The position numbers were made by a program, and so were the translations under genes. Positions 4,001-48,858 of a stretch of DNA of 64,000 bases are shown here, piece by piece. Location: assembly GCA_004193555.1 (NCBI GenBank), contig RPGP01000029.1, positions 140,976 to 204,975 on the forward strand, written 5' to 3'. How positions within the stretch are numbered: the stretch's first letter is position 1; each line of letters opens with the position of its first letter. Below the pieces are notes generated by a model, which saw nothing but the letters and a program-made list of their open reading frames with translations, did not search any database and had not been told where the DNA came from. The DNA comes from Desulfobacteraceae bacterium Eth-SRB1 (lineage in GTDB: Bacteria; Desulfobacterota; Desulfobacteria; Desulfobacterales; ETH-SRB1).

Positions 4001-4778
4001 TTTTTCCATTGCCATACCACACGAACAAGCCATGGATGTTAAAGATGAGGTCTCGTTTTTTCAGGCGGTAAAATCCCGATTGGCCAAATTTGACAGCACC
4101 GGCTTTGGCAAAACAGACGAAGAAGTTGAAACAGCGATTAGACAGGTTATTGACAAAGCATTGGTAACAGAAAAGGTTGTGGATGTTTTCGATGCCGCTG
4201 GAATCAACAAACCTGATATTTCAATACTTTCAGAAGAATTCCTTTTGGAAGTCAAAAACATGGAGCATAAAAATATTGCTCTGGAAGTTTTGAAAAAACT
4301 GCTGAATGACGAAATAAAGATGAGAACCAAAAAGAATCTGATACAAAGCAAATCCCTCATGGAAATGCTGGAAAATTCCATTAAGAAATATCACAACAAA
4401 ATTTTAACAGCAGCAGAAGTCATTGAAGAATTAATTGAATTGAGCAAAGAAATTCAGAAGATGGACAAAGAGCCTCAGGAAATGGGGCTGTCTGATTTTG
4501 AATATGCTTTTTATACGGCCATTGCCAATAACGACAGCGCTCGTGAGTTAATGGAAAAAGACAAGCTGAGGGAATTGGCAATTGTATTGTTTAAAAAGGT
4601 AAAGGCCAATGCTTCCATCGACTGGACAATCAAGGAAAGCGTAAAAGCAAAATTAAAGGTCATTGTAAAAAGAACATTACGGCAGTATGGCTATCCACCG
4701 GATATGCAGAAATTGGCAACTGAAACAGTTTTAAAACAAGCTGAATTAATAGCGGAAGAAATTACACGTGGAGAATAA
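1074..4778 (+). CDS. hsdR: Type I restriction enzyme R subunit (HsdR), 1234 aa, with two in-frame insertions
   Basis: PD-(D/E)XK nuclease core DVVLFVNGLPLVVIELK; helicase motifs TQGSGKS, DEAHRTQ, GFTGTP, MWLTGFDVP, QAIARINR; KKLAAYHQYYAVNRAV linker. The start overlaps the rhuM stop. Confidence 0.92.
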   Translation: MEDKITENAIEKFAIELLEKQGYQYIYAPSIAPDSETPERESFEDVLLMERLQTAVGRINPSIPADIREDAIKQILRLNSPELIANNEAFHRMLTEGIKVTYQKDWASRGDLVWLIDFKNPENNDFVVANQFTVIENNVNKRPDVVLFVNGLPLVVIELKNPADENATIRSAFKQLQTYKQEIPSLFIYNGFMIISDGLEAKAGSISAGLTRFMAWKTSDGKVEASPLIGRVETLIKGMLNKETLLDVIRHFVVFERSTKLTPSLNPSQREGSHYRGGMNFTGMIKQVRDLRKNQTEAESIFWELVRNKKFFGLKFRRQHQIGHYIVDFYCHSEKLIIELDGEVHNIQEQKNKDEKRDKYLKSLGNRMLRFKNTELFENTENVLKTIEKNLSPSGRDGREGGITTVTTIKKLAAYHQYYAVNRAVESTLRAAEYLPVQKKTQREQIAESPESYGLPGVKKQPSGDRKGGVVWHTQGSGKSLSMVFYTGKIVLVMDNPTVLVITDRNDLDDQLFDTFAASKQLLRQEPVQAEDRGHLKELLKVASGGVVFTTIQKFQPDEGNVYETLSERRNIIVIADEAHRTQYGFKAKTIDAKDENGNIVGKKIVYGFAKYLRDALPNATYLGFTGTPIESTDVNTPAVFGNYVDIYDILQAVDDGATVRIFYESRLAKINLSEEGKQLIKDFDELPLSQPLPEEEESLLPSPSGGRAGDGGFVSNKIKAKWTQLEALIGSEDRIKQVAQDIINHFEQRQEVFEGKAMIVAMSRRIAADLYKEIISIRPQWHNDDLKKGVIKVVMTSASSDGPEISKHYTTKDQRRALADRMKDPEDELKLVIVRDMWLTGFDVPCMHTLYIDKPMKGHNLMQAIARINRVYKDKPGGLVVDYLGIASDLKKALSFYSDSGGKGDPAIAQEKAVQMMLEKLEVVSQMFHGFAYEEYFEADTREKLSLILAAEEHILGLENGKKRYINEVNALSRAFSIAIPHEQAMDVKDEVSFFQAVKSRLAKFDSTGFGKTDEEVETAIRQVIDKALVTEKVVDVFDAAGINKPDISILSEEFLLEVKNMEHKNIALEVLKKLLNDEIKMRTKKNLIQSKSLMEMLENSIKKYHNKILTAAEVIEELIELSKEIQKMDKEPQEMGLSDFEYAFYTAIANNDSARELMEKDKLRELAIVLFKKVKANASIDWTIKESVKAKLKVIVKRTLRQYGYPPDMQKLATETVLKQAELIAEEITRGE
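1857..2279 (+). mobile_element. In-frame, hairpin-flanked cassette encoding a DUF559 (Vsr-like) endonuclease domain inside hsdR
   Basis: LRKNQTEAESIFWELVRNKKFFGLKFRRQHQIGHYIVDFYCHSEKLIIELDGEVH...RDKYLKSLGNRMLRFKN matches DUF559. It is flanked by hairpins tccctccc-agc-gggaggga (1871-1889) and ctctccc-tct-gggagag (2246-2262). It interrupts the HsdR nuclease-helicase linker. Boundaries are approximate. Confidence 0.7.
3133..3213 (+). repeat. Solo-end (endonuclease-less) derivative of the same cassette, in frame in hsdR (about 27 codons, PLSQPLPEEEESLLPSPSGGRAGDGGF)
   Basis: ctctcccaacctctcccagaggaagaggagag plus ctcccttctccttctgggggaagggctggggatgggg resemble the left and right ends of the 1857-2279 cassette placed side by side. 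Confidence 0.6.
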
Positions 4779-6426: not shown

Positions 6427-6704
6427 AATAAATATGGATTATCTCCCGATTAGTTGTAGTTAAGGCAAAAAAGCGGATTATCTCCAATTGAGCAGGTGTG
6501 ATCACAGAGGGTGCAAGGGGTCAAGGATTCAAGGGTTCAAGTGACACGTAATGAAGCGAAAACGCCAACCATAAATTCGGGCAATCTCCGGAAACATAAT
6601 CGGATTGTGAGCGCTAGAACTTATTGAGAAGTTACCAATTTATATCCTGAATATCCGGTAATCCTGTCAAAAAATATATTTTAAGAACAAAAGTAGTACG
6701 AATT

Positions 6705-7316
6705 ATGAATTCTTACCACAAAGAGCAGTCAGATGCGCTGGAAATGGTGCAGCGGTATCTTGCGGGCATTTCCGTGCCGGAAAGGAAAAAGCTTGAAGCA
6801 GAGGTGTCGGATTATCTTTTGTTCCGGGATGAGGTTGGCTTTTTTCTTTCCACCCATTTCAGTGAAGTCTGCACTCAAAAATGCTACCAGAGTAAACTGA
6901 GCGCCTGTTGTTCCCGTGAAGGAATTATTACTTTTTTTGGGGAATTTGTTGTCGATGCTCTGGTTTCTCAGGAAAAGGAGATTAAAGTGCTGCTGTCTGT
7001 CTTGAAAAAGCCGAATGAGGGGTTTAAGTGTGTCTATCTTGGAGAAAACGGGTGCATGTGGAAAGTAAAACCGATTGTCTGTGAGATGTTTCTCTGTGAG
7101 CAGGCAAAAAAAGATGTGTTTGGTTTAAATCCTGGCGCCGCGCAGGTATGGGAAGAGCTGAAAAAGAGAAAAAAGCTGTATACATGGCCGGACAGGACAG
7201 TACTGTTTGATACACTTGAGAACTATTTTCTGAATGCAGGATATTTATCACCTCTTATGTATATGCACAATAGTCCCGGACTGTTGCGTGTGAAGCGCAG
7301 GGCGCAGGTTGTATGA
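6705..7316 (+). CDS. Cysteine-rich hypothetical protein (possible Fe-S/Zn binding, loosely YkgJ-like)
   Basis: C-x3-C-x7-CC, then C-x8-C-x9-C-x4-C. It overlaps the helicase gene start by 8 nt. Confidence 0.5.
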   Translation: MNSYHKEQSDALEMVQRYLAGISVPERKKLEAEVSDYLLFRDEVGFFLSTHFSEVCTQKCYQSKLSACCSREGIITFFGEFVVDALVSQEKEIKVLLSVLKKPNEGFKCVYLGENGCMWKVKPIVCEMFLCEQAKKDVFGLNPGAAQVWEELKKRKKLYTWPDRTVLFDTLENYFLNAGYLSPLMYMHNSPGLLRVKRRAQVV

Positions 7317-8679
7317 TATTTTGAAAATTACCATTAAAAATAATCTCCGCCTTATCGATATTCCGCCGGACTTCAGAAAAATTCTAATTAAAAAGCTAAC
7401 CGTTTCTAATCCCAAATGGATTGAAAACGCGAGAATGAGCCGCTGGAACAGGGGCACTCCAAAGGTGTTGCAGTTTTATGATAAAACCAAAGCAGACGGC
7501 TTGTGGATTCCACGCGGTTATATGCGTCAGTTGGTATTGCTGTGCAGACATTACGGCATAAAACATCAACTTGACGACCAGAGGCGCGCCTTGGAGATAG
7601 TGGATTTTAATTTTGCCGGCAGGTTGAAGCAATTCCAGAAGGAAGCTGTCAATGTTATGCTTGCAAAAGACTTTGGCACATTGTGCGCTCCCACTGGAAG
7701 CGGGAAAACAGTAATGGCTTTGAATATGATAGCAGCGCGTCGACAGCCTGCATTGATTGTGGTGCACACAAAAGATCTGGCTTTTCAATGGGTTGACCGG
7801 ATAAGCGCTTTTCTTGGAATTCCGGCCGATGATGTTGGTTTTATAGGCGGGGGAAAGAAAAATATAGGGCAAAAGGTCACTGTCGCGCTTGTGCAGTCAC
7901 TTTATAAATTTGCTGAAACAGCGGCTAAAAAAACAGGCTTTCTCATCGTTGATGAATGTCATCGGTGCCCAAGCAGGACATTTACAGAAGCTGTAACCTG
8001 TTTTGATTCTAAATATATGCTCGGACTGTCTGCCACACCCTGGAGGCGTGACAATCTGTCAAAATTAATATTCTGGCATCTCGGAGATGTGCATCACGAG
8101 GTGGATAAAAACCGTTTGATTGAAAAAGGATATGTTCTGTCTGCTGAAGTAATAGTCAGGGAAACAGATTTTGAGCCATATTATGATCCGGTAAATGAAT
8201 ACAGCAAAATGCTTTCAGAACTTACGACGGATGATGTTAGAAACAGGCTTATAGCTTCGGACGTAGCGCTGGAATCACGGAATATTGCAGGTGTATGTCT
8301 AATTATGTCTGACAGGAAGAAACACTGCGAGACTCTCCAGGCGCTTTTAAAATATAAGCACAAAGTGGCATCCGAACTGCTGACAGGAGATCTTAAAGAC
8401 AGCGAGAGGCAGAAGGTGCTTGAAAGATTGAATCAGGGACAGGTCAAGGTGCTTATTGCCACAGGCCAGTTGATAGGGGAGGGGTTTGACTGTAAGAATT
8501 TGTCAACCCTGTTTTTTGCAACCCCTGTCCGGTTTAGCGGCCGTGTGATACAATACCTTGGAAGGGTACTCAGGCCGGCGCCGGGAAAGCAGAAAGCAAT
8601 GGTTTATGATTATGTTGATGTTAAGGTTGATGTTTTGAGAAAGGCCGCTATGGCGAGGCAAAAGGTATATAACAGCTAA
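7309..8679 (+). CDS. SF2 DEAD/DEAH-box helicase (XPB/Rad25-like, 456 aa)
   Basis: APTGSGKT (motif I), VDECHR (II), SATP (III), TGQLIGEGFD (V), QYLGRVLR (VI). Confidence 0.85.
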   Translation: MYDILKITIKNNLRLIDIPPDFRKILIKKLTVSNPKWIENARMSRWNRGTPKVLQFYDKTKADGLWIPRGYMRQLVLLCRHYGIKHQLDDQRRALEIVDFNFAGRLKQFQKEAVNVMLAKDFGTLCAPTGSGKTVMALNMIAARRQPALIVVHTKDLAFQWVDRISAFLGIPADDVGFIGGGKKNIGQKVTVALVQSLYKFAETAAKKTGFLIVDECHRCPSRTFTEAVTCFDSKYMLGLSATPWRRDNLSKLIFWHLGDVHHEVDKNRLIEKGYVLSAEVIVRETDFEPYYDPVNEYSKMLSELTTDDVRNRLIASDVALESRNIAGVCLIMSDRKKHCETLQALLKYKHKVASELLTGDLKDSERQKVLERLNQGQVKVLIATGQLIGEGFDCKNLSTLFFATPVRFSGRVIQYLGRVLRPAPGKQKAMVYDYVDVKVDVLRKAAMARQKVYNS

Positions 8680-8683
8680 ATAC

Positions 8684-8820
8684 AGGTTGTTAGGCTGTAG
8701 GCTGAAGGCTGTAGGATATCTCTCAAACATCAAAAGTCGAATTTGGGAATAGTGTGCTTGAATGGCTATGCTATATTATTGGGTTTTGTGAGTTTTTTCC
8801 CTAAAAGCCTTCAGCCTGTC
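8684..8820. repeat. Nested palindromic word-repeat element (arms built of aggctgt/aggctga words)
   Basis: Left arm aggttgttaggctgtaggctgaaggctgtagg, right arm cctaaaagccttcagcctgtc. Same family as 62964-63155. Confidence 0.75.
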
Positions 8821-11800
8821 TAACTGAGTAGTTTGGCTGAGTAGTTTGGCTGAGTAGTTTGGCCGGACTTGAACGCATTGATAAGCGAATCATCTATTAT
8901 GGCTTCGTAACCGGTTAACAGGGCAACAACGACATTGTCTTGATCAAGGAAAGTAAAATCGCATTTCATTTTATGTCTGGTTGTTTTCTTTACCTCAAGT
9001 ACCGCTGTGACCCCATCTGATGGAAAATCATTTCTATATTGTCGATAAGAGGCTGTATAGCTGGGGAGTGAAACTGCCCCTGTTTTTTCAAAGGACCATA
9101 TAATCGCCATCTGAAAGGCGCAGTCGAGGACAAGCGGATCTGTCAGCCATTTACTTCTCAGTGGATTTGATATCCATTTTGCTGGTTGAGGAGCTGATGA
9201 AATCCTGGCTGCCATTTTATTGGATGAATAATATATTATCTCTTTGATTCCGCGAAGCTCGGCGCCGTGGAATAGTATTTTTTCGTATATTTCTTCAATG
9301 CTCATGGGGAAAGGTTTTGAATCGATGTCATCCAATCCGCTGAAAACCGGCGGCTGAGCAGGTCTATCAGTCAAAATAGCCTTTGCCCTGGAGTGAATCA
9401 TCTCTACTCCATCCTTAATGCCGTTTCTAATTTCAACATCTACTTCAAAAATCGAACCTTTTTTTCTGGATTTTCCTGCCATGAGACGGATCATCTTTTT
9501 GTTGTTATTAAGCTTGATCCCGCTTAAGATCCGCATGTCATCAAGACCATGGAAGAAAAGACCCGGGTTTTCATGAAGGGCTCCATGCCCCAGCCATTCT
9601 GTTATGAGAGCAAAAGGCACAACAGGTTTTCCGTCAAGTATATGAGATTCAAGAACAGGGTAACTGTTAATATCAATTTCACATTTTGCGGTAAGTGAAA
9701 GATTTTTTTTTGTATCGGAAAGCGAGACCTGTTTTCCTCCTGAAATAAGCTTTTTTGCAGGCATTATATTCGCGCCCATAACAACTTCTACAGGAGAGCT
9801 TTTATCTCCCATCATCTCATAGAGCATACACATGGCTCCTGAATCTAAGGGGATCAGCTCAATTTTGCTGCGGGCAAATTCTCGTTTCAGGGCAGATGAT
9901 ACCATGCCTCCATCCCATGGCCCCCAGTTTATGGAAATCACTTTGCAATCAGGCCTGACAATCGATTCATACCGGGCAATCTTGTTTAAAACCTCATTAG
10001 CCATGGCATAGTCAGCCTGCCCCCTGTTTCCAAATCTCGCTGTTATAGATGAAAAAAGGACAATATATTTTAGCTTATCCTGTTTTGTCGCCTCAAGAAG
10101 TGTTTTAAGCCCTTTAACCTTTGTATCGAACACCATTTCAAACTGCTTCAAAGTTTTTTCAACTATAAGCCGGTCTTTAAGGGTTCCGGCACCATGAATA
10201 ACACCCTTAATCGGGCCATGGTTTGATCTGACATTATCAAGGATCGATTTAACCATGTCAGAATCACGAATATCAACAGAATAATAGAGTACGGTTGAGC
10301 CGGTTTCTTCAAGCTTAACAATGTTTCCTGTAATTTCACGATTCGCCATATGATTTTTGTATGATTTTTCCAACTGAACCGGAGATGCATGATTTCCGCT
10401 GAATTCGTTTTTTAGGATTGCTTTTTTAATGGCAGGCTCATCATTTATGGTTGCGAGCCATTCCGGTTCGGGAGACGGATTTGGAGATCGTCCAAGCAGA
10501 ACAAGGGTCGGCTTCGAGTGCTTTGCAAGGGCAAGAGCCGAAGCAGCGGTAACACCTCTTGCGCCTCCGGTTATAACAACGACATCATTCTGGTTGAGGT
10601 CGATTTTTCCATGGTGATAAGGAGAAGGTTCAAGCTCAAGCATTAATCTTGAATCAGGGTTCAGTCCCGTTTCAACAGGAGCTGAAAGATCAGGATTTAA
10701 AAGTTCATATACAACGGCTTTTGCTATCTCTTTATTATTTTTCCAGTCCGGCGATATGTCTATGGCATGACAGTTGACCTTTTCCCATTCAATCGAGGCT
10801 GTTTTTGCAAGGCCTGCAAGACCGCCCTGCAAAGGATTAAAAATGTTCTTGCCTTTAAAACCGAAAGCGCCGTCAAGGGAGGTGATTGTTGTAAATACTG
10901 CTCCGCCTTTTTCTGCGGAATCAAGAAGTTCCACTGCAACACGGCTTGTAAGCTCAAAGGCCTTTTTCAGGAATGCGTCATCAGGCAAATTCGCCCTGTT
11001 GTTCTGGGAATAATCAGCTCCAATCATTTTACTGTCAGGAAGAATTATGAGCCCTCCTGCCGGTGGCAGATCTTTTTTGTTTTTTAATATATCGTTTGAA
11101 ATAACAGATGCATCGATATTAAAGGATGCCAGCTCTCTGGCAATTGCCTTTGAAAGGCCTGCTCTGTCGTCAGTAATTAATACTTTTCTCCCATTGGGAA
11201 TACTTAATTTGTTGTCATAGTGAAGCGGTTTTTCAGATAGAGATACGACTCTTTTATCTATTTTAACGGCTGTTTTTTCATCTGTTTTATTTTTAGATAA
11301 AACTTTTTCATTCTGTTTTTTATGCGCATCGCCATTATCAGATCCCGTGAGATATTCAGCGATCTGCCCTAATGTTTTAAAGTTGCCCATGATTTCCGGC
11401 GAAACAGAAGGCAGGTCAGGCATCTTTTCCTCAAGAGCAGAGAGTATTTCCACCCTTTTGATTGAATCTATGCCCAAATCCGATTCAATATCCATGTCAA
11501 GCTCAAGCATCTCAACAGGATACCCTGTAAGCCGGCTGACTACTTCGAGCATTTCGTTTTGTATTTTTTGACCGGTTTGAGAGGCATGCTCCCGGGGCGC
11601 ACTTTCTTGTATTTTCTTTTCTTTTGGTCTGGATTGGGGCTCTTTTTTTTCAGATCCGGTTAAATATTCAGCGATTTGCCCCAATGTTTTGAGGCTGCCC
11701 ATGATTTCCGGCGAAACAGAAGGCAGGTCGGGCATCTTTTCTTCAAGTGTGGAGAGTATTTCCACCCTTTTGATTGAATCTATGCCTAAATCCGACTCAA

Positions 11801-14800
11801 TATCCATATCGAGTTCCAGCATTTCTACAGGATACCCTGTAAGCCGGCTGACTACCTCTAACATATTATTTTGGATTGAAGATTGCTGAACTCCGACCTC
11901 AGACTCATTTTGTTGCCGGTTGCCGGTTGCTGGTTGCTCGTTACTGGTTGCTGGATTCTGGATGTTGGTTGATTGTTGATTGTTTATTTCGGATTGCTGA
12001 CCTCTGACCTCTGACATCTGACTTCCGGTTTCCAGCTTTAAGCTTTCCGCTTTGAGCTTTGAGCTTTGAGCTTCTTCCCAGCTTCCAGTTTCCAGTTTCC
12101 AGTTTCCAGTCTTCAGCTTAAGCCCCAGTGAAACTTCTGCCAGGCGCTGTGTGTTTTCCATCATGTTTTGCAGCGCGCGATTAGCCTCTGTCTGCGTTTC
12201 CAGAAACTTTTTGTGCGCTTCGGCGGTTTGTGCCTGGAGAGCCTGTATCGACTTTAAGCCTTCCCGGGTAATCTTTAATGCATCTGCAATTAAGTTTGTG
12301 TTTTTCGTTTTGTCCCTGTTCGTATTGTTTGGGTTCGTATTGTTTGGGTTTGTATTGTCTGGGACAGTTTTGTTTTTATATGCGCTCATAGCTTTATCCG
12401 GTTTGTTGATGTGTTGAGTGTGGGCAAACTCCTCATTGGGTGGGGTTTTTGTTTGTATGCTGTTTATAACTTTTTTACTCTTTTTTTTGTTTTTTAGTAT
12501 TTGTTCCGGCTCCGTTCTGTAGTTTGCTCCAGTGATAGGTATGCTCATCAGCTGCTTCCTGGTTTCGAAAACAGGATGTTCCCATCCGGCTAATTCAACA
12601 TGGTGACCTATTGATGCGAGATGGCAAAGTGTTTTAGCGAGATCCGCCACTCCGAATTGTTTTCCTGAAGAACAGTCCATTGGAATCACATGAAAATTTT
12701 GATCTTTTAATATCGATTTTACAAGACCGGTCAGAACTCTTTTGGGCCCTATCTCTATAAATGTGCGAACACCTGTTTTGAATTGATTTTTAATTTCACT
12801 TACAAAATCCACAGGACATAAAATCTGTTTGCCAAGCAAATCTTTTGCCTTGGCCGGATCATAAGGGTATGGTTTGCCTGTTGTGTTGGAAAAAACCGGG
12901 ATGTCTGAAGGGGTTATTCCGGCTTTTTTAACGATCTTTGCAAACGGTTTTTGAGCATCTTTTACAAGATTGCTGTGAAAAGCGGCGGATACCGGCAGTT
13001 TTATTGTTTTATATCCTTTTTCTATGCATATTTTGTCTGCCCGGTCAACAGCCTCGATTGTGCCGGATAGAACTCCCTGGTCAGGGCTGTTTTTGTTTGC
13101 AAGGATAACGCCTGTATCCGTATTCTCAACAAGCTTGGCAAGTTCGTCAACCGGCGCTTTTACAGCTAACATAGCGCCATTCTGGTTTTTGTTCCGGCTC
13201 GCATCAGCCATTAAATTGCCCCGTGCGATTGAGAGGTCGAAAAGGGTATCGATGTCGATCCAGCCTGCTGCATAAAGGGCGGGCAGTTCGCCATAGCTGT
13301 GTCCGCAGACAGCATCATGTTTTACCCCAAACTTTTGAAGGGTTTTCAGCATTGACAGGCTTACAGCGCCGATGGCAGGTTGAGCAATATCGGTCCTTCT
13401 TAAAGTTTCTTCCTGAACCAGCTTTTCTTTATCGGATTGAGAGGGAAGAGGGTAGATGTATTCGCATAAGGAATATGAATTATCGTATTTTGCATTTGCA
13501 ATTTCCAGGATATCGAAAGCTTCGGGAAACCAGCAAGCAATGTCCCGGCCCATGCCGGTATATTGACTTCCCTGGCCTGGAAACATGAATCCGATTTTAC
13601 CGGCTTTTTCGGAGCCAGCATAATCGGGGCCCCCGTAAAAGATATTTTTCAGATTCCAGGCCGGTTTGCCGCTGTTTTTTTCAAGGCCATCCAATGCAGC
13701 GGTAAACAAATCGGATATTTCTTTCAAGTTGTCTGAAGACCGTTCAATAACAAGAAGGAGCCTGTGCTTATCTTTTCTTGAAAATTGTGATCTTGAGCTA
13801 AAAGCTTTTTTCGAGAATTTTTTTCCCGGCAGCCCATGTTCAATAGAGCTTTTGAGGGAGCTGAGAGCTGCGGCAAGTTCCTTTTTTGTTGAAGCAGACA
13901 GCGCAAAAATTTCAACCGAGCCGTCCCATGATATTTCAGTTTTGTTTTGCTTATATTCTTCGAGAATCACATGAAAATTGCTTCCTCCGAACCCGAAAGA
14001 GCTTACACCGGCGCGTCGCGGATGTTCTTTTTTTGAGAACCATGGTTTGGACGCTGTGCTGAGATAAAAAGGTGTTTCATTGATCTTGAGATTTGGATCA
14101 GGCTTATCGGCTTTCAAGGTGGGTGGAAGCACTTTGTTATAAAGAGATAAAGCGGTTTTTATAATGCCGGCAGCTCCGGCAGCAGCCTTGGTATGCCCGA
14201 TCATGGATTTAACCGAGCCTAATGCGCACCATTTGCCGGATTTTTTATTAGATTCGCCAAAAACCCGGCTTAAAGCCTGAAACTCAACCATGTCGCCGAC
14301 CCTGGTGCCGGTGCCGTGAGCCTCGATAAGTTCGATAGTGGACGGGTCAATACCTGCATTACTGTGTGCCATTCGGAGCGCTTTTGCCTGTCCTTCAGGT
14401 TTTGGGGCATATATGCTTTGCGCTTTGCCGTCGCTTGAAGAACCTATGCTTTTTACAACAGCATAGATTCTGTCATTATTTTTTTCCGCATCATCAAGCC
14501 TTTTTAAAACAAGTATTCCGACACCTTCCCCAAGAACTGTGCCGTCCGCATCCTTTGAAAAAGGCCTTGCATCCCCGGTTGGTGAAAGAACATGACTTTT
14601 TGAAAAGCACATATGCATGAAGATGTCGTTCAAGGTGTCAATGCCGCCCGTGAGAACTGTGTCGCTGCGACCGGATACAAGTTCCAGGACGGCGAGATGG
14701 ATTGCGCCCATTGAACTGGCGCATGCGGCATCAATAACACAGTTGGTGCCCCCCAGGTCAAGGCGGTTGCATATTCTTCCGGCTACGACGTTTCCCAGGA

Positions 14801-15356
14801 GTCCGGGAAATGAGCTTTCCTGCCAGGAAACGTATGAGTCTGATATATCTTTTATGATTTCTTCTGTTTTTTCAGGAGAGATACCTGAGTTTAAAAGAGC
14901 TTTCCGCCATTTTGGATGCCCTAACCTGGCACCCAGAGGAATAACAAGCTCCTGTGTTCCTGTTATTCCTAAAATTACGCTTGTTCTGTCTTTGTTATAT
15001 TTTTTTCCTTCTCCATAGCCTGAGTCATGAAGCGCCATTTTTGCGGCAGTCAGGCCGAAGAGCTGGGATGTGTCGGTTGCTTCAATGGAGGCTGGAGGAA
15101 TGCCGAATTCTGTTGGATCAAATGAGACAGGTGATAGAAATCCGCCCCGTTTACAGTAAACATGGTCCGGTTTTTTGGGGTCCTTATCAAAGTAATCCTC
15201 TGACAGCCAGTGTGTTTTCGGGACATCGGTAATTCCGTTTTCGCCGTGAAATATCAAACGCCAGTATTCTTTTAATTCAGACGATTTTGGAAAGAGGCAT
15301 CCGATTCCAATGATGGCAATGGGAGTATTCTGGTAAGTATTTTTATTTGATTTCAA
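8820..15356 (-). CDS. Type I polyketide / PfaA-like synthase, KS-AT-ACP-ACP-KR-DH (2178 aa)
   Basis: KS: DAACASS, HGTGT, GHT. AT: GHSYGE. Two ACPs: LGIDSIKRVEIL twice. KR Rossmann fold: VITGGARGVT. C-terminal hot-dog DH: HILDGKPVVP. Confidence 0.9.
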   Translation of the reverse strand: MKSNKNTYQNTPIAIIGIGCLFPKSSELKEYWRLIFHGENGITDVPKTHWLSEDYFDKDPKKPDHVYCKRGGFLSPVSFDPTEFGIPPASIEATDTSQLFGLTAAKMALHDSGYGEGKKYNKDRTSVILGITGTQELVIPLGARLGHPKWRKALLNSGISPEKTEEIIKDISDSYVSWQESSFPGLLGNVVAGRICNRLDLGGTNCVIDAACASSMGAIHLAVLELVSGRSDTVLTGGIDTLNDIFMHMCFSKSHVLSPTGDARPFSKDADGTVLGEGVGILVLKRLDDAEKNNDRIYAVVKSIGSSSDGKAQSIYAPKPEGQAKALRMAHSNAGIDPSTIELIEAHGTGTRVGDMVEFQALSRVFGESNKKSGKWCALGSVKSMIGHTKAAAGAAGIIKTALSLYNKVLPPTLKADKPDPNLKINETPFYLSTASKPWFSKKEHPRRAGVSSFGFGGSNFHVILEEYKQNKTEISWDGSVEIFALSASTKKELAAALSSLKSSIEHGLPGKKFSKKAFSSRSQFSRKDKHRLLLVIERSSDNLKEISDLFTAALDGLEKNSGKPAWNLKNIFYGGPDYAGSEKAGKIGFMFPGQGSQYTGMGRDIACWFPEAFDILEIANAKYDNSYSLCEYIYPLPSQSDKEKLVQEETLRRTDIAQPAIGAVSLSMLKTLQKFGVKHDAVCGHSYGELPALYAAGWIDIDTLFDLSIARGNLMADASRNKNQNGAMLAVKAPVDELAKLVENTDTGVILANKNSPDQGVLSGTIEAVDRADKICIEKGYKTIKLPVSAAFHSNLVKDAQKPFAKIVKKAGITPSDIPVFSNTTGKPYPYDPAKAKDLLGKQILCPVDFVSEIKNQFKTGVRTFIEIGPKRVLTGLVKSILKDQNFHVIPMDCSSGKQFGVADLAKTLCHLASIGHHVELAGWEHPVFETRKQLMSIPITGANYRTEPEQILKNKKKSKKVINSIQTKTPPNEEFAHTQHINKPDKAMSAYKNKTVPDNTNPNNTNPNNTNRDKTKNTNLIADALKITREGLKSIQALQAQTAEAHKKFLETQTEANRALQNMMENTQRLAEVSLGLKLKTGNWKLETGSWEEAQSSKLKAESLKLETGSQMSEVRGQQSEINNQQSTNIQNPATSNEQPATGNRQQNESEVGVQQSSIQNNMLEVVSRLTGYPVEMLELDMDIESDLGIDSIKRVEILSTLEEKMPDLPSVSPEIMGSLKTLGQIAEYLTGSEKKEPQSRPKEKKIQESAPREHASQTGQKIQNEMLEVVSRLTGYPVEMLELDMDIESDLGIDSIKRVEILSALEEKMPDLPSVSPEIMGNFKTLGQIAEYLTGSDNGDAHKKQNEKVLSKNKTDEKTAVKIDKRVVSLSEKPLHYDNKLSIPNGRKVLITDDRAGLSKAIARELASFNIDASVISNDILKNKKDLPPAGGLIILPDSKMIGADYSQNNRANLPDDAFLKKAFELTSRVAVELLDSAEKGGAVFTTITSLDGAFGFKGKNIFNPLQGGLAGLAKTASIEWEKVNCHAIDISPDWKNNKEIAKAVVYELLNPDLSAPVETGLNPDSRLMLELEPSPYHHGKIDLNQNDVVVITGGARGVTAASALALAKHSKPTLVLLGRSPNPSPEPEWLATINDEPAIKKAILKNEFSGNHASPVQLEKSYKNHMANREITGNIVKLEETGSTVLYYSVDIRDSDMVKSILDNVRSNHGPIKGVIHGAGTLKDRLIVEKTLKQFEMVFDTKVKGLKTLLEATKQDKLKYIVLFSSITARFGNRGQADYAMANEVLNKIARYESIVRPDCKVISINWGPWDGGMVSSALKREFARSKIELIPLDSGAMCMLYEMMGDKSSPVEVVMGANIMPAKKLISGGKQVSLSDTKKNLSLTAKCEIDINSYPVLESHILDGKPVVPFALITEWLGHGALHENPGLFFHGLDDMRILSGIKLNNNKKMIRLMAGKSRKKGSIFEVDVEIRNGIKDGVEMIHSRAKAILTDRPAQPPVFSGLDDIDSKPFPMSIEEIYEKILFHGAELRGIKEIIYYSSNKMAARISSAPQPAKWISNPLRSKWLTDPLVLDCAFQMAIIWSFEKTGAVSLPSYTASYRQYRNDFPSDGVTAVLEVKKTTRHKMKCDFTFLDQDNVVVALLTGYEAIIDDSLINAFKSGQTTQPNYSAKLLS
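11345..11890 (-). repeat. Tandem duplication (period about 342 nt) encoding the two ACP domains
   Basis: Near-identical blocks NEMLEVVSRLTGYPVEMLELDMDIESDLGIDSIKRVEILS(T/A)LEEKMPDLPSVSPEIMG occur twice. Confidence 0.85.
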
Positions 15357-15496
15357 TTCAAAACCTCAATTAAATCACGAAAACACGAAAGAATGAAAGC
15401 ACGAAACAGGAAAGGTCAAAAAACCGATTTTTACGAATTTATAATTTATTAATATAAAACACAAATAAAATTATTGCAAGACATTGACAAAATATT

Positions 15497-15538: not shown

Positions 15539-16111
15539 ATGATAAAGTACTATATAAACAGGGAACTTTCCCAAAAACTTGGAATAAACCTGGCGAAATG
15601 GAAAAGGTGGTCACGGGAGTTTTTAGCGCCTGATCCATTGGGTGGAATGCAGTCCGGCTACGCAAGGCAATATAGCATTGAAAATGCTTTTACTGTTTAT
15701 CTTGGAGGTCATTTGGTGGCTGATATAAAGTTTGCCGTGCCGGAGGCAAAACAAATCCTTAATGATTTACATAAATGGCTTACAGAAAACCGGTTTTACT
15801 CTATTGCCAGAGCCGGTTCAAAACCTTTTGAATGTGGGGATAATTTGGTAAAAAGATACATAATCTTTATCTGTTGTATGCAGTTAGAGAGAGTAACAGT
15901 TGGTTTTCATTATAAAATCAGAGGAATAATTTCTGACAAAACTGTTGATTACAAGGGTTTTCAGGTCAGGCAAGAGCATTTTATAGAAACAATAATTTGC
16001 CCACAAACAAATAAGCAGGCAATGCTCGATTTGGTTAATGTTAAAATGCTGAATATTACAGAGTTACATAAGAAATTTTTAGTAAATCTTGAGATCACAC
16101 CGTCTGCCTGA
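15539..16111 (+). CDS. Hypothetical protein, possible N-terminal HTH
   Basis: ELSQKLGINLAKWKRWSREF resembles a short HTH. ATG at 15539 is preferred over the TTG at 15509. Confidence 0.45.
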   Translation: MIKYYINRELSQKLGINLAKWKRWSREFLAPDPLGGMQSGYARQYSIENAFTVYLGGHLVADIKFAVPEAKQILNDLHKWLTENRFYSIARAGSKPFECGDNLVKRYIIFICCMQLERVTVGFHYKIRGIISDKTVDYKGFQVRQEHFIETIICPQTNKQAMLDLVNVKMLNITELHKKFLVNLEITPSA

Positions 16112-16207
16112 CGGACCGCGAGTTCTTCAATCTTTCCCGGAATAAATGAGCGCTTCCATAGTCCTTTCTGTTTAGTTGTATTTATGTCTTCTTGAGATAC
16201 GTAAATA

Positions 16208-16281
16208 TTACATAAATGCAGTCTGTCTCTTATATTGTCACATATTTGTAGTTTGTCGCTTACATTATTACATATTTGTAA
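16208..16281. promoter_or_regulatory. Three TTACA-N4-TGTAA-type palindromes phased exactly 30 bp apart
   Basis: ttacataaatgcag (16208), tcacatatttgtag (16238), ttacatatttgtaa (16268), lying 100-175 nt upstream of the TGGCAC element at 16383. Confidence 0.5.
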
Positions 16282-16382
16282 CGCAGCAACTTTTTTCTTC
16301 ATATATGTAACCACCTTCCATAATATTTTTATTCCATTAACATCTTATAGTTATAGTGATTCGTCGTGGCATTTATCCTTTG

Positions 16383-16398
16383 TGGCACATATCTTGAT
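16383..16398 (+). promoter_or_regulatory. Sigma54-like -24/-12 element TGGCAC-atatc-TTGAT (non-canonical -12)
   Basis: tggcacatatcttgatat has the same architecture as the elements at 57672 and 58731. Confidence 0.4.
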
Positions 16399-16464
16399 AT
16401 ATAGTTTTATAACTTTGTAACGAAATCTCGAAATATGCCAAATTAAAATGAAAGGGGGTTAGAA

Positions 16465-16497
16465 ATAAAAAAGATCGAGGCGATCATTAAACCTTTT
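16465..16497 (+). pseudogene. Relic of the first 11 codons of a PII (glnB/glnK) gene, with ATG mutated to ATA
   Basis: ataaaaaagatcgaggcgatcattaaacctttt versus glnB atgaagaaaatcgaggcgatcatcaaacctttt ([10 protein letters not shown]), preceded by aaggggg. Confidence 0.55.
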
Positions 16498-18075: not shown

Positions 18076-18537
18076 ATGGCGCTTTTACTTGTGCAGCATG
18101 GCAAGAGCCTGCCAAAGGATAAAGATCCTGAAAAGGGCCTTTCCGATGAAGGGAACATTGATGTTAAGCGTATAGCGGATGCAGCTAAGAAATACGGCGT
18201 TAATGTATCATGTATTAAGCACAGCGGCAAAAAAAGGGCGCGTCAAACTGCCGATATATTTGCATCTGCCTTACAACCCGCACTTGGCGTTCAGGAAATT
18301 GGCGGAATAAATCCAATGGATGACATTGCAAGCTTTGCCGACAGTATAAGCAGCGGAGAAGATTTAATGATTGCAGGTCATTTGCCTTTTATGGAAAAAT
18401 TGGTCTCTTTTCTGATAACAGGGTCTATTGCAAAGCCGGTGATAAAATTCCAGAATGGAGGCATTGTGTGTCTAAATGAAGATCCGGATAGCCATTCCTG
18501 GGTAATAAAATGGGCGCTTATGCCGGATATTAAATAA
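18076..18537 (+). CDS. sixA: SixA-like histidine phosphatase (RHG motif reads QHG)
   Basis: MALLLVQHGKS...GLSDEG...RARQTA...IAGHLPF. RBS aggaggg. The ORF-track N-terminal extension is rejected. Confidence 0.65.
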   Translation: MALLLVQHGKSLPKDKDPEKGLSDEGNIDVKRIADAAKKYGVNVSCIKHSGKKRARQTADIFASALQPALGVQEIGGINPMDDIASFADSISSGEDLMIAGHLPFMEKLVSFLITGSIAKPVIKFQNGGIVCLNEDPDSHSWVIKWALMPDIK

Positions 18538-18711
18538 TGATATAGCCGCAAAATTGCTCAAAATAGGCAAAAAATAAAATCTACATTCTTTAATATCAAT
18601 AGGTTATAAGTAATAATAACTTAAAGTCAGACTTTTTACGAATTTATCTATAACAGTCGGCGCATCCTGTAGTTTACCCCGGTATTGTTTGTTTTTATAA
18701 AGGAACGCTTA

Positions 18712-20046
18712 ATGACCAATATTTTATTAATTTCTATTGTCCTTATCTCTATTGCTTCGCTTGTCCTGCTTTTGATTCTCAATAAGGGTAAATCGGATGA
18801 ATGGATAAAAAAGATTGCAGGCCGGTTTGATCTTCTGAAAAACGGACAGGAGGATACCGGCCGCATTGTAAAGGAAGAAATTGCTCTGAACAGGGAGGAA
18901 ACAGCCAGGAATTCTAAAAATGCCAGGGAAGAATTAGGCAGATACCTCAAGGATTCCAGCGATTCCCTTCTTAAGCGGATGACGGAAAATGCCGGAATGC
19001 AGAAAGATCAGCTCGATTCCTTTTCAAAACTGCTGGGAGATATGACCAAACTGCATGAAGAAAAATTCAATGCAATGCGCAGGACACTGGAAAATCAGTT
19101 GAGGTCGCTTCAGGAAAATAACAGCAGGAAGCTGGATCAGATGAGGCTGATTGTTGATGAGAAGCTCCAGTCAACCCTTGAAGCCCGCCTCGGTGAGTCC
19201 TTTAAACAGGTCAGTGAACGGCTTGAGCAGGTATATAAAGGGCTGGGAGAAATGCGCAGCCTGGCTGCCGGTGTGGGTGACCTGAAGAAAGTATTAACCA
19301 ACGTGAAGACGCGTGGTACCTGGGGAGAGATCCAGTTAGGCAATATTCTGGAACAAATTTTAACTCCGGATCAATATGGTGTTAATGTGGCGACAAAGAA
19401 AAACAGCAATGACAGGGTTGAATTTGCCATAAAATTGCCGGGACAGGGCGCTGATAAGGAACAGATTGTCTGGATGCCTATTGACTCCAAATTTCCCCAG
19501 GAGGATTACCAGCGCCTGATAGATGCGCAGGAGGCGGCAGATAAAGAGCTGGCAGACAAGTCGATGAAAAATCTGGAAATCCGTATAAAGGCGGAAGCCA
19601 GGAATATTAAGGAAAAGTATCTTGACCCTCCCAATACAACCGATTTTGCCATTATGTTCTTGCCTGTGGAAGGGTTGTATGCAGAGGTATTACGGATGCC
19701 CGGGTTATGCGATTTTTTGCAGCGGGAATACCGTATTACCGTTACCGGCCCAACAACCCTGGCAGCATTGCTAAACAGCCTCCAGATGGGTTTCAGGACG
19801 CTTGCAATACAAAAGCGTTCCAGCGAAGTCTGGGAACTTCTGGGTGCTGTTAAAACAGAATTTGGTAAATTTGGTGAAGTTCTGGACAAAACCAAGAAAA
19901 AACTTAAGGAAGCTACAAACATTATTGGTCAGGCGGAAGTCCGCACCAGGGCCATTGAAAGAAAGCTTAGGAAAGTCCAGGAAATACCGCAGAACGGATC
20001 TGATGTTGATCAGGATCAAGTTAGCGCACCTTCGGTGCGGACATAA
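18712..20046 (+). CDS. rmuC: DNA recombination protein RmuC
   Basis: N-terminal TM helix, long coiled coil, then TRGTWGEIQLGNILEQ...FAIMFLPVEGLYAE, typical of RmuC. Confidence 0.85.
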   Translation: MTNILLISIVLISIASLVLLLILNKGKSDEWIKKIAGRFDLLKNGQEDTGRIVKEEIALNREETARNSKNAREELGRYLKDSSDSLLKRMTENAGMQKDQLDSFSKLLGDMTKLHEEKFNAMRRTLENQLRSLQENNSRKLDQMRLIVDEKLQSTLEARLGESFKQVSERLEQVYKGLGEMRSLAAGVGDLKKVLTNVKTRGTWGEIQLGNILEQILTPDQYGVNVATKKNSNDRVEFAIKLPGQGADKEQIVWMPIDSKFPQEDYQRLIDAQEAADKELADKSMKNLEIRIKAEARNIKEKYLDPPNTTDFAIMFLPVEGLYAEVLRMPGLCDFLQREYRITVTGPTTLAALLNSLQMGFRTLAIQKRSSEVWELLGAVKTEFGKFGEVLDKTKKKLKEATNIIGQAEVRTRAIERKLRKVQEIPQNGSDVDQDQVSAPSVRT

Positions 20047-20258
20047 GTGCCTAAAGTGAGCTAAAGTGCCTAAAATGCCTAAAGTTGTGGTACGCCTTCG
20101 GCGTGTTAGAGATTTTCAGGGCTTGGTTATAAGTTCAGGTAGAAACAAAGTGAGCAAAATTGTATGGTGAAAAAAATTAAAATTGGCAGCGCCGAAGGTG
20201 CATTCCTTAACTTTAGGCACTTTAATATACTTTAGTTCACTTTAGACACTTTTTACTT
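20045..20258. repeat. Nested palindromic word-repeat element (gtgcctaaag words)
   Basis: gtgcctaaagtgagctaaagtgcctaaaatgcctaaag ... ctttaggcactttaatatactttagttcactttagacac, with inner arms gtacgccttcggcgtg / gcgccgaaggtgc. Confidence 0.75.
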
Positions 20259-20266
20259 ATATAATT

Positions 20267-22980: not shown

Positions 22981-23078
22981 CCGATTTATTGATTTCGGAA
23001 TGCGGAGTGCGGAATGCAGAGAAAAAATCCGAAATCCGCATTCCGAAATCCAGAATTATAAGACAGGGAGAATAAGAG

Positions 23079-25275: not shown

Positions 25276-25505
25276 ATATGTGGTCGAGTGGTGGTTGGGC
25301 CGTCCTACGTGGCGACTGGTCGAGCGGTGAATTGGTCGAGTGGTGAATTTGGTCAAAAGAACAAATTAAAAGATGAACGTCCAACATCCAACATCGAATT
25401 TTCAATAAGGTATTCTGCCAATTTGTAAACCGGCGGAGAGAAGCGATTTCATCATTCGATGTTCGACGTTGGATGTTCGATGTTGGACGTTCAAAAAAAT
25501 TCACC
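25276..25505. repeat. Nested palindromic word-repeat element (ggtcgagtggtg and ccaacatccaacatcg words)
   Basis: aacgtccaacatccaacatcgaa ... ttcgatgttcgacgttggatgttcgatgttggacgtt. Outer ggtcgag(t/c)ggtgaat repeats. Confidence 0.75.
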
Positions 25506-25622
25506 TATATCCTATGATACCGAATTCATTAGGCATAAAATGGAAATTTCTATACTATCAAGTTAAGAAAAATGATTTGAACCCTGAACCTCTGAACGGT
25601 TACTTTTATAATTTCTTGTACA

Positions 25623-28600: not shown

Positions 28601-28649
28601 ATTCACTAACGAACAGATTTTGTCACAAATACATGCTTTTGGAGAATGA
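25623..28649 (+). CDS. hdrA: HdrA-like heterodisulfide reductase flavoprotein with two FAD domains; selenocysteine at in-frame UGA 25815-25817
   Basis: ORFs 25623-25817 and 25887-28649 are in the same frame. Reading through gives [18 protein letters not shown], matching the conserved HdrA CSMC-ILxPK site with Cys replaced by Sec. GGGIAGIQ and GSGISGM dinucleotide folds; several CxxCxxCxxxCP motifs. Confidence 0.8.
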
Positions 28650-31509: not shown

Positions 31510-31869
31510 AATTCATCCTTTTTTAGTTCGGTATTAGTGTTTATATACAACATTAGGCACTTCATATTCTATGCCGAAGATAGAAACCACCTTTCAAAAG
31601 TGTAAACTACTTTTTGGCCTATATGAAAGATGCGCAAAATAATATTATTTTTACTAACTTTTGTTAATATATGTTAGCAATACTAATTGTCAAGTTATTA
31701 TTAATTGTAGCTGTTTACGGCTTGAAATTGGAATTTAGAAATTAAGATTTTTCCCTTTGGTCGAAATGACAAATAACGGCAGTTGTACAAAGCTCTCGAG
31801 TTAACAGTATAAAAAGATAAAGGCCAAATTTCCAATTTCTATTTTCTAATTTCAACGTTCCGTGAACGC

Positions 31870-34708: not shown

Positions 34709-35071
<363 letters not shown>

Positions 35072-35082
35072 TCAAATTTTGA

Positions 35083-35220
35083 TAAATTCGTAAAAAGTCG
35101 AAAAGTTCTCTTTTCCATCATTCCGGCGAAAGTCCGCCAAAGCGCTCTGGCGGATAAATTCAATGCGTTCTGGATGCCGGATCAAGTCCGGCATGACGAT
35201 TTCGAGACTTTTTACGAGTT
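35083..35220. repeat. Palindromic element with tcgtaaaaagtc-type arms and inner hairpins
   Basis: aaattcgtaaaaagtcgaaa ... tttcgagactttttacgagttt. Inner hairpins tccgccaaagcgctctggcgga and gccggatcaagtccggc. Confidence 0.7.
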
Positions 35221-35330
35221 TATCATTTAAAAATAACCATGAAAAATTCATTTATCATATATTAAATTGTAAAGTTTTTTCAACATATGATATTAAAAAT
35301 TCGAAAAAGAATTTTTTTAAATAGCTTTTC

Positions 35331-35346: not shown

Positions 35347-35792
35347 TAAAAGTGAAAAAATGGAGGTTATACAGGCTTCGGATACAGAAAATACGGATTT
35401 CAGGCCATTGCAAGGAGTGCAACGACGAAGCAGTCATTTGATAAACTCGTAAAAAGTCGAAATCCAGTCAATTTTTGATGCATTCGTAAAAAGTCAAAAA
35501 GGCGCACTTTCGTTATTTTTGGAAAGCTTGGAATAAAATAATTACAAATAGTTATCTCTGTGTTCTCTGTGCGCTCTCTGGTAAATGGTACTTTTTACGA
35601 ATTCAAAAAGGGAGGTAGCTGCTATGCTGCCCTTGTAGCAGCGCCGAACCCCATTGACAATGGGAAACAAATTGTCATTTCGAACGAATGTGAGAAATCT
35701 TAGCATTAAGTAGCGTGGGGCCTTTGTGCCCCACAGAGCATCGGGACCGTCTCCCCGACCAGACAACCAGATCATGTCCGGGAGCTTCAAAC

Positions 35793-37205: not shown

Positions 37206-37545
37206 GATAATTATTCTCCTTAAAGTATCGTCATAGTTTATGTCTTTCAAAAAGACTTTTTTGACAGGATTAACAGGATATTCACGATTAAAACATCAAA
37301 ACTCATCCTGTCAATCCTCATTAAAATTCTTTACTTTGCTTTTGATTTATGCACAACCAATGATCTTTCAATCAATTCTTTGTATTTCATTTTTACACCT
37401 TACCCAGATAATGATTTTTATGATTTACTGGATAGCTAAAGTAAGGCTTAATCTCGTTTGTTCACTTGAAACCTGTCTGCGTGCTACGCACAGGCAGACA
37501 AAATCTTGTTTATCCTGTGTTATCCTGTCTGATTTTTTTAAAGGG

Positions 37546-39301: not shown

Positions 39302-39465
39302 CTTAGGGCTCGCTCAAAAATAACTTTACATTTTAAGCGCCGATACATCCCGTCTGGCTACGTTCCGAAAGCTCAGCAATATCTTGATATTCCTAATCTT
39401 TCGCGCCTTGCCGGCCAGGCGCCTCAACACTTAAAATTGCTAATTTATTTTTGAGCGAACCCTTA
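39302..39465. repeat. About 165-bp MITE-like palindromic element (cttaggg.tcg..caaaaataa termini)
   Basis: Terminal inverted repeats cttagggctcgctcaaaaataa / ttatttttgagcgaaccctta. Internally homologous, in inverted orientation, to 45782-45946. Confidence 0.75.
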
Positions 39466-42178: not shown

Positions 42179-42199
42179 AAAAATATATTTGAGTTAAAA

Positions 42200-48852: not shown

Positions 48853-48858
48853 TCTCCA

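Follow-up and report, generated by a model that had tools for sequence, protein, structure and literature searches.

The question raised by a 64,000-nt stretch of contig RPGP01000029.1 from Desulfobacteraceae bacterium Eth-SRB1 (hereafter the window, always at its full length) is how the nested palindromes in its intergenic spacers arose. [quoted passage not shown] We consider it probable, at roughly 0.8, that the palindromes are several families of such miniature non-coding transposons, the inverted arms of which carry tandem repeats of 7-8 nt. They add one more example to a kind of selfish DNA already known, and constitute neither a new mechanism nor a novel type of system. That the elements arrived by transposition follows from their conserved terminal inverted repeats, their occurrence at unrelated sites in several genomes, their target-site duplications and the empty sites found in relatives. 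The words themselves repeat in tandem with a unit of 7-8 nt (9-10 in some cases) at a sub-terminal position within the inverted arms, and they therefore read forward on one side and reverse-complemented on the other. They are inherited with the family, and their number changes between copies and between orthologues.

The examples listed earlier were recovered at or near their reported positions, each as a degenerate run of words, an inner hairpin or unique centre, and the words again as reverse complements, so that the shared architecture of word arms, inner hairpin and variable centre stands. An inverted-repeat search of the window gives the arms of these elements as 23-35 nt long and 86-97% complementary: 35 nt and 97% for 62972-63006/63109-63143, 28 nt and 86% for 22986-23013/23028-23055, 27 nt and 89% for 48885-48911/48937-48963, 25 nt and 92% for 25374-25398/25469-25493, and 23 nt and 91% for 20045-20067/20229-20251. 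Tandem words in the arms were detected by Tandem Repeats Finder (TRF), with period 7 in most. Exact 11-mer inverted pairs at most 300 nt apart number 104, in 22 clusters, against 5.5 ± 3.4 pairs (maximum 16) and ~4 clusters in 30 shuffles; short inverted repeats are ~20 times commoner than in shuffled sequence. Outside open reading frames (ORFs) of at least 100 aa lie 18 of the 22 clusters, while such ORFs occupy 80.6% of the window. The recurrence of outer arms and inner hairpins was borne out by BLAST. The focal element is present, but its true extent is longer than 8684-8820, at about 8669-8863.

A scan of 185,579 species genomes (one per species) with a pattern made of the shared core and right arm of the focal family returned 11 loci in 5 Desulfobacterales metagenome-assembled genomes (MAGs), each with different flanks; the window holds 2 copies besides. 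Alignment of the family gives a consensus of ~175 nt with conserved ends GTAACTGCTCAGG...CCTGAGTAGTTAC, and the terminal inverted repeats GTAACTGCTCAGGT...ACCTGAGTAGTTAC are conserved in the full-length copies. The consensus reads GTAACTGCTCAGGTTATTAGCCTGAAGGCTGTAGGCTGAAGGATA...core...CCTAAAAGCCTTCAGCCTTCAGCCTATCTACCTGAGTAGTTAC, which makes the AGGCTGA words sub-terminal components of the inverted ends, with three in a typical arm. In a second subfamily, these ends and words are joined to an unrelated core. Perfect 8-bp target-site duplications accompany six independent insertions with focal-type ends (CCTTTATC, AAATTTAC, GAACTTAA, AAACTAAG, TAATTTTT and GAAGATTT). The superfamily that includes the focal aggctgt element is marked by GTAACNNYTCANGG ends and duplications of 8 bp.

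Within this superfamily, the terminal repeat GTAACNNYTCANGG is combined with the words AGGCTGA, GGTTCAG, TTTACGG or CCACAGAT, or occurs without words. In two GTAAC-type cases, the repeated word is a heptamer from the inner part of the terminal repeat (TTCACGG, TTCAAGG) that has been amplified. The idea that the words are binding sites of a shared transposase was rejected, as the same terminal repeat is found with unrelated words or none. At positions 4624-4710 of locus L009 (labels from L001 onward denote loci from relatives and metagenomes, relatives' loci including L005-L008 and L020-L023) there is an 87-nt MITE, flanked by the perfect 8-bp duplication CCTTTATC, in which the architecture is reduced to its minimum: the GTAAC end, heptamers of the TTCACGG type and a loop of 11 nt.

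The first copy of the aggctgt family in the window, copy A (8669-8863; palindromic elements are given here with no strand), lies between the convergent genes for a helicase and a polyketide synthase (PKS), and has 3-4 AGGCTGN words in its left arm as compared with 2 in its right. The stop codon of the helicase gene (8677-8679) falls within its degenerate left end. At the right end, the terminal motif ctgagtagtt has been triplicated as a tandem repeat of 13 nt (8824-8863), which makes up the C-terminal tail of the PKS, the last ~14 codons of which read through this triplicated MITE terminus (8820-8863); in relatives the triplicated unit is single-copy. Copy A has orthologues in L006 and L008, while in L007 only one arm remains, most simply through deletion, because L007 is nested among relatives carrying the full element. 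In L008, most of the aggctgt core has been exchanged for sequence with a tcgtaaaaag hairpin.

The second copy, copy B (62957-63160), has degenerate ends and lies in the nifD-nifK spacer, where the state before insertion is preserved in relatives. This gap is 11 nt in L022, whose NifD is 96% identical, and in the outgroup L024/L025, giving an empty site, and it is 168-218 nt where an element is present (L023, L020 and the window). In L020, L021 and L023, it holds a different MITE of the GTAAC end type, ATAACTATTCAAGG...CCTGAGTACTTAC, with GGTTCAG words and the duplication GAAGATTT (the L021 contig stops within the element), and the aggctgt MITE of the window sits at nearly the same place. Thus one spacer has been hit by two MITEs, and its ancestral state was without both. 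The AFOR operon likewise has empty sites: two of its spacers, 344 nt and 88 nt long in the window, measure 14 nt and 30 nt in L001. The presence of an element differs among strains with 96-97% identical NifD. Comparison of loci across strains, which had been proposed as a check, shows elements present in some and absent from others, and word number altered. An 8-nt tandem duplication (AAATTTGT x2.6, 62944-62964, + strand) lies at the end of nifD and is single-copy in all relatives. NifD ends in WKFVKDEDFT* at the empty sites and otherwise in WKFVKDEDL* or, in the window, in WKFVNL*, its tail having been altered there by the element insertion and the 8-nt duplication. Inside copy B, a 20-nt hairpin of the form CCCCGC...GCGGGG (CCCCGCTGCTTGCGGCGGGG, 63051-63070) replaces 12 nt of the family core, and hairpins of the same type are found at 53785-53803 and 54547-54565.

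Another family of the window can be followed into metagenomes. With the outer arms aattctaattat/aattagaattgctg as scan pattern, 29 metagenome loci of the CAGCAATTCTAATT family were obtained, with about 12 unrelated centres; the ends CAGCAATTCTAATT...AATTAGAATTGCTG are shared by the window and the 29 loci, although those ends belonged to the search pattern. Perfect 9-bp target duplications were found in 6 of 27 CAGCAATTC elements, while only 0.4% of mismatched controls reach 7/9. The family to which the aattctaattat element belongs is characterised by CAGCAATTCTAATT ends and duplications of 9 bp. In the window, one member (46036-46125) has the tccgcc hairpin as its centre (46073-46094), and in another element of this type (48858-49015), bracketed by the direct repeat CAATCTCC (48850-48857 and 49016-49023), the interior is the cacgaag word palindrome with a 9-nt period. 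A copy of the left half of cacgaag, 98% identical, lies at L015 1263-1309. In the metagenome contigs L037 (325-393) and L043 (1646-1714), the CAGCAATTCTAATT element stands head to tail with a 4-nt spacer, an arrangement that is a tandem array rather than a single insertion.

In the roughly 140 kb of relatives' sequence searched for further copies, non-orthologous copies were found for the gtgcctaaag, ccaacatc, cacgaag, gaaattg, 42193-type, 39305-type and gacagga elements. In the gtgcctaaag element (20045-20258), both arms carry words of 9-10 nt (AAGTNNNCTA), and the inner hairpin is gtacgccttcggcgtg/gcgccgaaggtgc; a copy at the non-orthologous site L009 3104-3286 shares the arms at 96-97% identity, but its centre is unrelated. 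A RmuC gene together with this element (18537-20266) is absent from L001 (7180-7213), where the flanking genes are 35 nt apart, and this difference amounts to an indel the size of a gene beside a MITE. The ccaacatc element (25365-25500) has heptamer arms, AACATCC/GATGTTC, with a left arm only at L020 6272-6302 and, at L017 about 7150-7310, a copy with the ctgtctgcgtgc hairpin nested in its centre. The gaaattg element (31716-31870; words GAAATTG/AATTTCT) has outer ends of the GTTCACGG type, and within its copy at L016 1655-1832 the ctgcctgcgtgc hairpin is nested. The ~190-nt nested-palindrome MITE with AAACTAAGTTGAGCGATTTTTT ends at 42193-42382 carries the inner hairpin tccgcctgaggcgga, while its copy at L011 4-171 has arms 97% identical and a different inner hairpin. 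The ~160-nt MITE with AGGGCTCGNNCAAAAATAACTT ends at 39305-39463 has a second window copy in the opposite orientation (45776-45952) and a third, 86% identical, nested in an insertion at L005 3716-3878. The gacagga word palindrome (GACAGGATTAACAGGATA...CATCCTGTCAATCCTC, 37263-37319) recurs with its left arm at L006 4638-4674. The tcgtaaaaagtc-family element with TGATAAANTCGTAAAAAGTC arms (35064-35230; inner hairpin tccgccaaagcgctctggcgga, 35133-35154) has further arm copies at 35437-35501, 35588 and 18630.

These data contradict the view that MITE copying cannot give this pattern, for there are multi-copy families with conserved ends, at unrelated loci, with duplications and an empty site. Ordinary multi-copy MITE families, the very outcome that the earlier note had set against its own reading, are largely what we find for the focal element and for nearly all the others, the cggaatg palindrome being the exception. 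The words are indeed diverse, but a word is a trait of its family and is not made anew for each element. The elements measure 60-230 nt and have no ORF of their own, flanking genes merely running into them, and they combine conserved terminal inverted repeats and duplications of fixed length (8 or 9 bp) with dispersed non-orthologous copies and empty sites.

Word number and centre both turn over within the families. In the aggctgt family, an arm has between 1 and 6 words, depending on the copy; the elements of L020 and L023 differ on the left, with 5-6 words against 3, their right arms being identical, and the two arms of one element can be unequal, with 1 against 3 words in L014, 4-5 against 2 in L006 and 14.6 against about 4 in L017 (3193-3368). 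Centres are replaced and nested: the small hairpins tccgcc..ggcgga and ctgtctgcgtgc..gcacaggcag recur within different host elements, the latter at 37473-37497, 46249-46273, L016 1683-1708 and L017 about 7235. Centres that vary under shared arms, together with small hairpins lodged inside other elements, give the elements their nested look.

Several word arrays stand outside any complete palindrome. On the + strand, TGAACC words ending in GGTTAC at 25578-25603 are likely the right-end remnant of a GTAAC-type MITE, by similarity to the ends in L016 and L020, and a one-armed 8-nt array (GGGTCAAG x4, 6509-6541) is of the word type of the L020/L023 MITE arms. Also on this strand, TRF gives a one-armed array of AAAGCACG/CACGAAA x5.5 at 15368-15414; directly after nifH (59641-59700) there is a one-armed CACAGATTA x3 array followed by aagtggtt words, orthologous in L023, while the L022 spacer carries a CAGCAATTCTAATT MITE instead. 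A one-armed ggtcgagtggtg word array with a GGGCCGTCCTACGTGGCG unit (25276-25355, + strand) has an L005 orthologue in which the words are arranged otherwise, and in L001 the spacer is 14 nt. Across 232 kb of the window and relatives, arrays of period 7 number 48 (3.6 in shuffles) and those of period 8 number 28 (5.4 in shuffles), with no enrichment of periods 4-6. An inverted partner within 300 nt is present for only 29 of 68 short-period arrays, the remaining majority being one-armed. Heptamers also occur in coding sequence: on the - strand, a 244-nt linker of the PKS gene (8820-15356) consists of five successive in-frame arrays (ctggaaa, gctcaaa, gtcagag, caatcaa and cagcaac on the coding strand; 11877-12120), and in the 94% identical L006 orthologue the linker is unrelated and non-repetitive. 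The GTCAGAG array of this linker recurs at L016 4268-4300, where an unrelated gene has it as its C-terminal tail.

How such changes could come about can be sketched from the comparisons above. Words would be gained and lost by replication slippage or tandem duplication, under a strong bias of this lineage towards 7-8-nt units that would act outside MITEs as well, and centres would turn over by nested insertion or by recombination between copies that share arms. Quasi-palindrome correction is an established mutational route, and one arm of copy B may have been copied onto the other in such a way, by intramolecular template switching or gene conversion, giving its mirrored six-word arms. The GTAAC family would be mobilised in trans, possibly by an IS66-like transposase. 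The inverted repeats of IS66 begin with GTAAGCG, and its direct repeats are 8 bp long (PMC11946415). The focal superfamily likewise ends in GTAAC and makes 8-bp duplications, but its ends match the consensus GTAAGCG in the first four bases only, and no IS66 transposase (tnpA/tnpB/tnpC) or full-length element turned up in the window or the loci examined. The elements themselves would be selfish or neutral passengers.

Several points weigh against the transposon explanation. Both window copies of the focal family (8669-8863 and 62957-63160) have degenerate ends and no recognisable target duplication, so that their mobility is judged from the family; their decayed ends explain why the family terminal motif has 0 matches in the window at up to 2 mismatches. 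There is no transposase encoded in the window, and among the loci examined no autonomous element with matching ends and no paired ends 0.7-4 kb apart were seen. The census spans about 230 kb and the 29 metagenome loci, not a complete genome. As the same terminal repeat occurs with unrelated words or with none, binding by a shared transposase does not account for the words, and the preference for units of 7-8 nt over 4-6 nt is not predicted by ordinary slippage. Finally, the cggaatg palindrome (22991-23052), which lies 27 nt upstream of the AFOR start codon and has arms built of GANTNCG heptamers, is alone among the listed examples in being known from one locus: BLAST against the relatives' loci found no second copy, and there is no target duplication. 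It looks as if it grew in place.

This last point bears on two related alternatives. It is possible, though doubtful, that a process of this lineage creates and extends arrays of 7-8 nt wherever they are tolerated, in arms, spacers, protein tails and the PKS linker, with template switching copying units between arms and palindromes growing in place. On this view, the amplification of TTCACGG and TTCAAGG could be a selfish multiplication of putative transposase-binding sites; alternatively, the unit length of 7-8 nt may reflect the footprints of 8-9-bp target duplications. The stricter form of growth in place, in which the palindromes grew without any transposition, by tandem duplication of 7-8-nt units and hairpin-templated or fork template switching, the families being secondary, we regard as improbable. 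Several observations nevertheless speak for it. Upstream of AFOR, L001 has no palindrome, L005 has a 20-nt perfect palindrome (GATTTCGGAATTCCGAAATC), and in the window GATTTCGGAATTCCGAAATC is enlarged by ~4 heptamer words per arm, which sit at its centre. The spacer between the P-II and radical-SAM (S-adenosylmethionine) genes is 10 nt in the outgroup. In the window it carries, on the + strand, a one-armed array of GAGGATT-type words (60502-60570), broken by the hairpin GGGGCGAACC..GTTCGCCC (60535-60556), which is one-armed in L023 as well; L020 and L022 have a two-armed form with a central hairpin, and the words are mutually reverse-complementary. In copy B, both arms are enlarged to about 6 words with a 15-nt period, 34/35 positions are complementary, and the right arm holds the complement of a 15-mer otherwise typical of left arms, which suggests that one arm was copied onto the other. 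The arrays of the PKS linker, which have no palindrome at all, and the 5-13 fold enrichment of periods 7-8 point in the same direction.

Growth at the spot, however, yields no conserved ends, target duplications, copies at unrelated loci or empty sites, and most elements show them. Deletion, as in L007, explains one-armed forms equally well, and the numbers of words in the two arms are usually not mirrored (L014, L006, L017, and L020 versus L023 on one arm). Arm-to-arm mirroring as a general rule was accordingly rejected: copy B alone shows mirrored arms, and most copies are unequal. Of the proposed generative mechanism there thus remain the change in word number, the replacement of centres, the apparent growth of 22991-23052, the mirrored arms of copy B and the heptamer arrays outside palindromes, but the elements themselves arose by transposition.

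A second alternative is that the elements are selected RNA structures, their hairpins acting as terminators, stabilisers or RNase processing sites, and this we find very unlikely. Folding as predicted for single-stranded DNA is strong (-52.5 kcal/mol and z = -9.4 for 62960-63160 in copy B; -23.2 kcal/mol and z = -3.5 for 8669-8836 in copy A), many elements lie within operons, directly before start codons or after stop codons, and in the Nostoc trnL intron heptanucleotide repeats make a hairpin that is transcribed (PMC3488679). Against it, across 8 aggctgt copies, 0 of 35 predicted pairs are compensatory, the covariation term is +0.52, and variants in one arm are unmatched in the other. Terminator-like sites are not significantly enriched (22 against 20.2 ± 3.9, and 25 against 17.8 ± 5.0, in shuffles); of the hairpins in the elements, only the inner ones at 46071-46096 and 63070-63087 are called, and the word hairpins, which have no T-runs, are not. 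Intrinsic terminator function was therefore rejected. The whole window has no Rfam match at the gathering threshold, and a tRNA scan of it returned nothing. The elements are found between convergent, divergent and co-directional genes alike, their presence varies among strains at 96-97% NifD identity, and the ancestral nifD-nifK gap is 11 nt. The proposed selection for RNA structure thus finds no support in compensatory pairs, terminators, Rfam or strain distribution, and we conclude that the elements are tolerated insertions, with possible effects on operon expression.

It is likewise highly improbable that the words are cooperative binding sites of a host regulator or of an RNA- or single-stranded-DNA-binding protein. 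A role of this kind has been suggested for the TAACTGA repeats of Beggiatoaceae (PMC4679880) and for heptanucleotide repeats in Geobacter (PMC2700814), the period of 7-8 is strongly preferred, and some words (AATTCCTA, TTCAAGG, GTCAGAG and GAACATC) recur at independent loci and in different genomes; but there are dozens of words and not one or a few, their position relative to start codons is not fixed, they are polymorphic between close strains, and they travel with MITE families. That chimeric or fold-back joins in metagenome assembly produced the palindromes is barely credible, since many independent assemblies (NCBI, ENA, JGI and Logan) contain the small elements in the same form, also at orthologous positions, even though relatives' contigs are often broken and one larger structure, the inverted duplication at 53409-54969, has a 74-nt block 100% identical between its arms that a fold-back chimera could produce.

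That duplication is 1.5 kb long, with arms of about 540 nt and several small repeats, and either a genuine palindrome or an assembly join of the fold-back type could account for it. Two of the sites listed earlier as word elements, 53648-53690 and 54680-54720, are present, but both are arms of this one structure. It contains the apparent 3' end of a WCX-domain gene, judged by similarity to the gene at 49067-50110, and a third partial copy, 91% identical, lies at 50903-51022. The window further encodes two glnA genes, amtB, glnD, a NifA-like activator, nifH and nifD, an AFOR/HdrA-like operon, the pfaA-like PKS and a type I restriction system, and the best protein matches, at 93-97% identity, are to uncultured Desulfobacteraceae and Desulfobacterales MAGs. 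Relatives' contigs with the query genes at this identity are mostly 2-9 kb, the longest about 27 kb, and their PKS homologues are nearly all partial, at about 900-1000 aa, both of which are consistent with dense repeats and tandem ACP (acyl carrier protein) domains breaking short-read assemblies. The HdrA-like gene (25623-28649) has an in-frame TGA at codon 65 (25815-25817; ...NDCAI-TGA-ILAPK...), after which the frame continues; gene calls in relatives are split at this codon (64 aa and 949 aa in L002/L004) or read through it (1020 aa in L001/L003), and it is a candidate selenocysteine site. A 77-nt dispersed direct repeat (caaataataacggaaatgtagttttatatcctgc...), 95% identical, occurs in two unrelated spacers (44205-44281 and 57548-57624), and a 30-nt tandem repeat (TATTACATATTTGTAGTCTGTCGCTTACAT x2.5, 16206-16280), unrelated to the word palindromes, lies in the 385-nt spacer 16111-16496.

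MITEs rewrite gene ends, here the tails of NifD and of the PKS and the stop codon of the helicase gene, which is relevant to annotation, and they put hairpins of 150-220 nt between genes formerly 11 nt apart (nifD/nifK). Their insertion may affect the expression of nitrogenase and of the AFOR/Hdr operon in an environmentally common clade of sulfate reducers. What the elements represent is a set of bacterial MITE families with tandem-heptamer arms, in which one terminal repeat is joined to many interiors.

Bacterial MITEs include Correia/NEMIS in Neisseria, RUP in Streptococcus pneumoniae, Nezha in cyanobacteria and MITEAba12. The elements described here resemble them in being small and non-coding, with terminal inverted repeats, 8- or 9-bp duplications, many intergenic copies and a presence that varies among strains, and also in being able to supply stop codons and protein tails. 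They differ in that the arms have 7-8-nt words in variable number, and in that one terminal repeat is joined to unrelated words and cores. Our literature search found no description of MITEs in Desulfobacterales, uncultured Desulfobacteraceae included. The main elements are not REPs or REPINs (paired REP sequences), being longer and having target duplications, and the window has no Y1-transposase gene; the small inner hairpins of 20-25 nt, however, could be REP-like. Small dispersed repeats (SDR) of Nostoc punctiforme are reportedly units of ~20-27 nt nested in other repeats and hairpins (Elhai et al. 2008). By description they resemble the 20-25-nt hairpins of the present elements, tccgcc..ggcgga, ctgtctgcgtgc..gcacaggcag and ccccgc..gcgggg, which recur inside different elements.

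Eukaryotic Foldback (FB) transposons have long inverted arms built of short tandem repeats in variable number, around a centre that is variable or absent. In form, the present elements share the repeat-built inverted arms, variable repeat number and variable centre; however, FB elements are eukaryotic, of kilobase scale and tied to a different transposase superfamily. In cyanobacteria, the spacers of nif clusters are reportedly highly variable yet structured (Mazel 1990; Jackman & Mulligan 1995). The heptanucleotide hairpin of Nostoc (PMC3488679) is formed by pairing of degenerate heptamers, and strains differ in the number of repeats and in inserted non-heptamer elements. The likeness lies in heptamers that pair from both sides and vary in number, and the nif spacers here behave like those of cyanobacteria; the differences are the phylum, the transposon ends and target duplications, and dozens of words in place of two classes. 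The likeness to cyanobacterial-type heptamer repeats is thus one of form only (period 7, inverted partners, variable copy number), the words being unrelated, but the elements resemble the Nostoc hairpins more closely than they do Foldback elements.

A bacterial MITE that carries an internal tandem repeat, a minisatellite, is BrickBuilt of Porphyromonas gingivalis (PMC4596501); the comparison is by the presence of a tandem repeat only, and in the elements of the window short words stand in both arms. Heptamer arrays are known from Beggiatoaceae, in which TAACTGA forms direct repeats (PMC4679880), and from Geobacter metallireducens, with GGACCGG x4 at 49 sites and MTYCTGA x5 (PMC2700814). These too are 7-nt tandem arrays, mostly intergenic, in bacteria of sulfidic or anoxic sediments, one of them a former Deltaproteobacteria relative. 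In those genomes, however, a single word or a small number of words serves throughout, mainly in direct repeats whose positions are fixed, whereas here many words, often in inverted pairs, are carried on mobile elements. If it is true, a process that extends arrays of 7-8 nt would tie the present elements to the heptamer repeats of cyanobacteria, Beggiatoaceae and Geobacter. The MITE families of this lineage offer a tractable system for the origin of heptamer repeats, a question that they share with the short tandemly repeated repetitive (STRR) sequences of cyanobacteria and the TAACTGA repeats of Beggiatoaceae.

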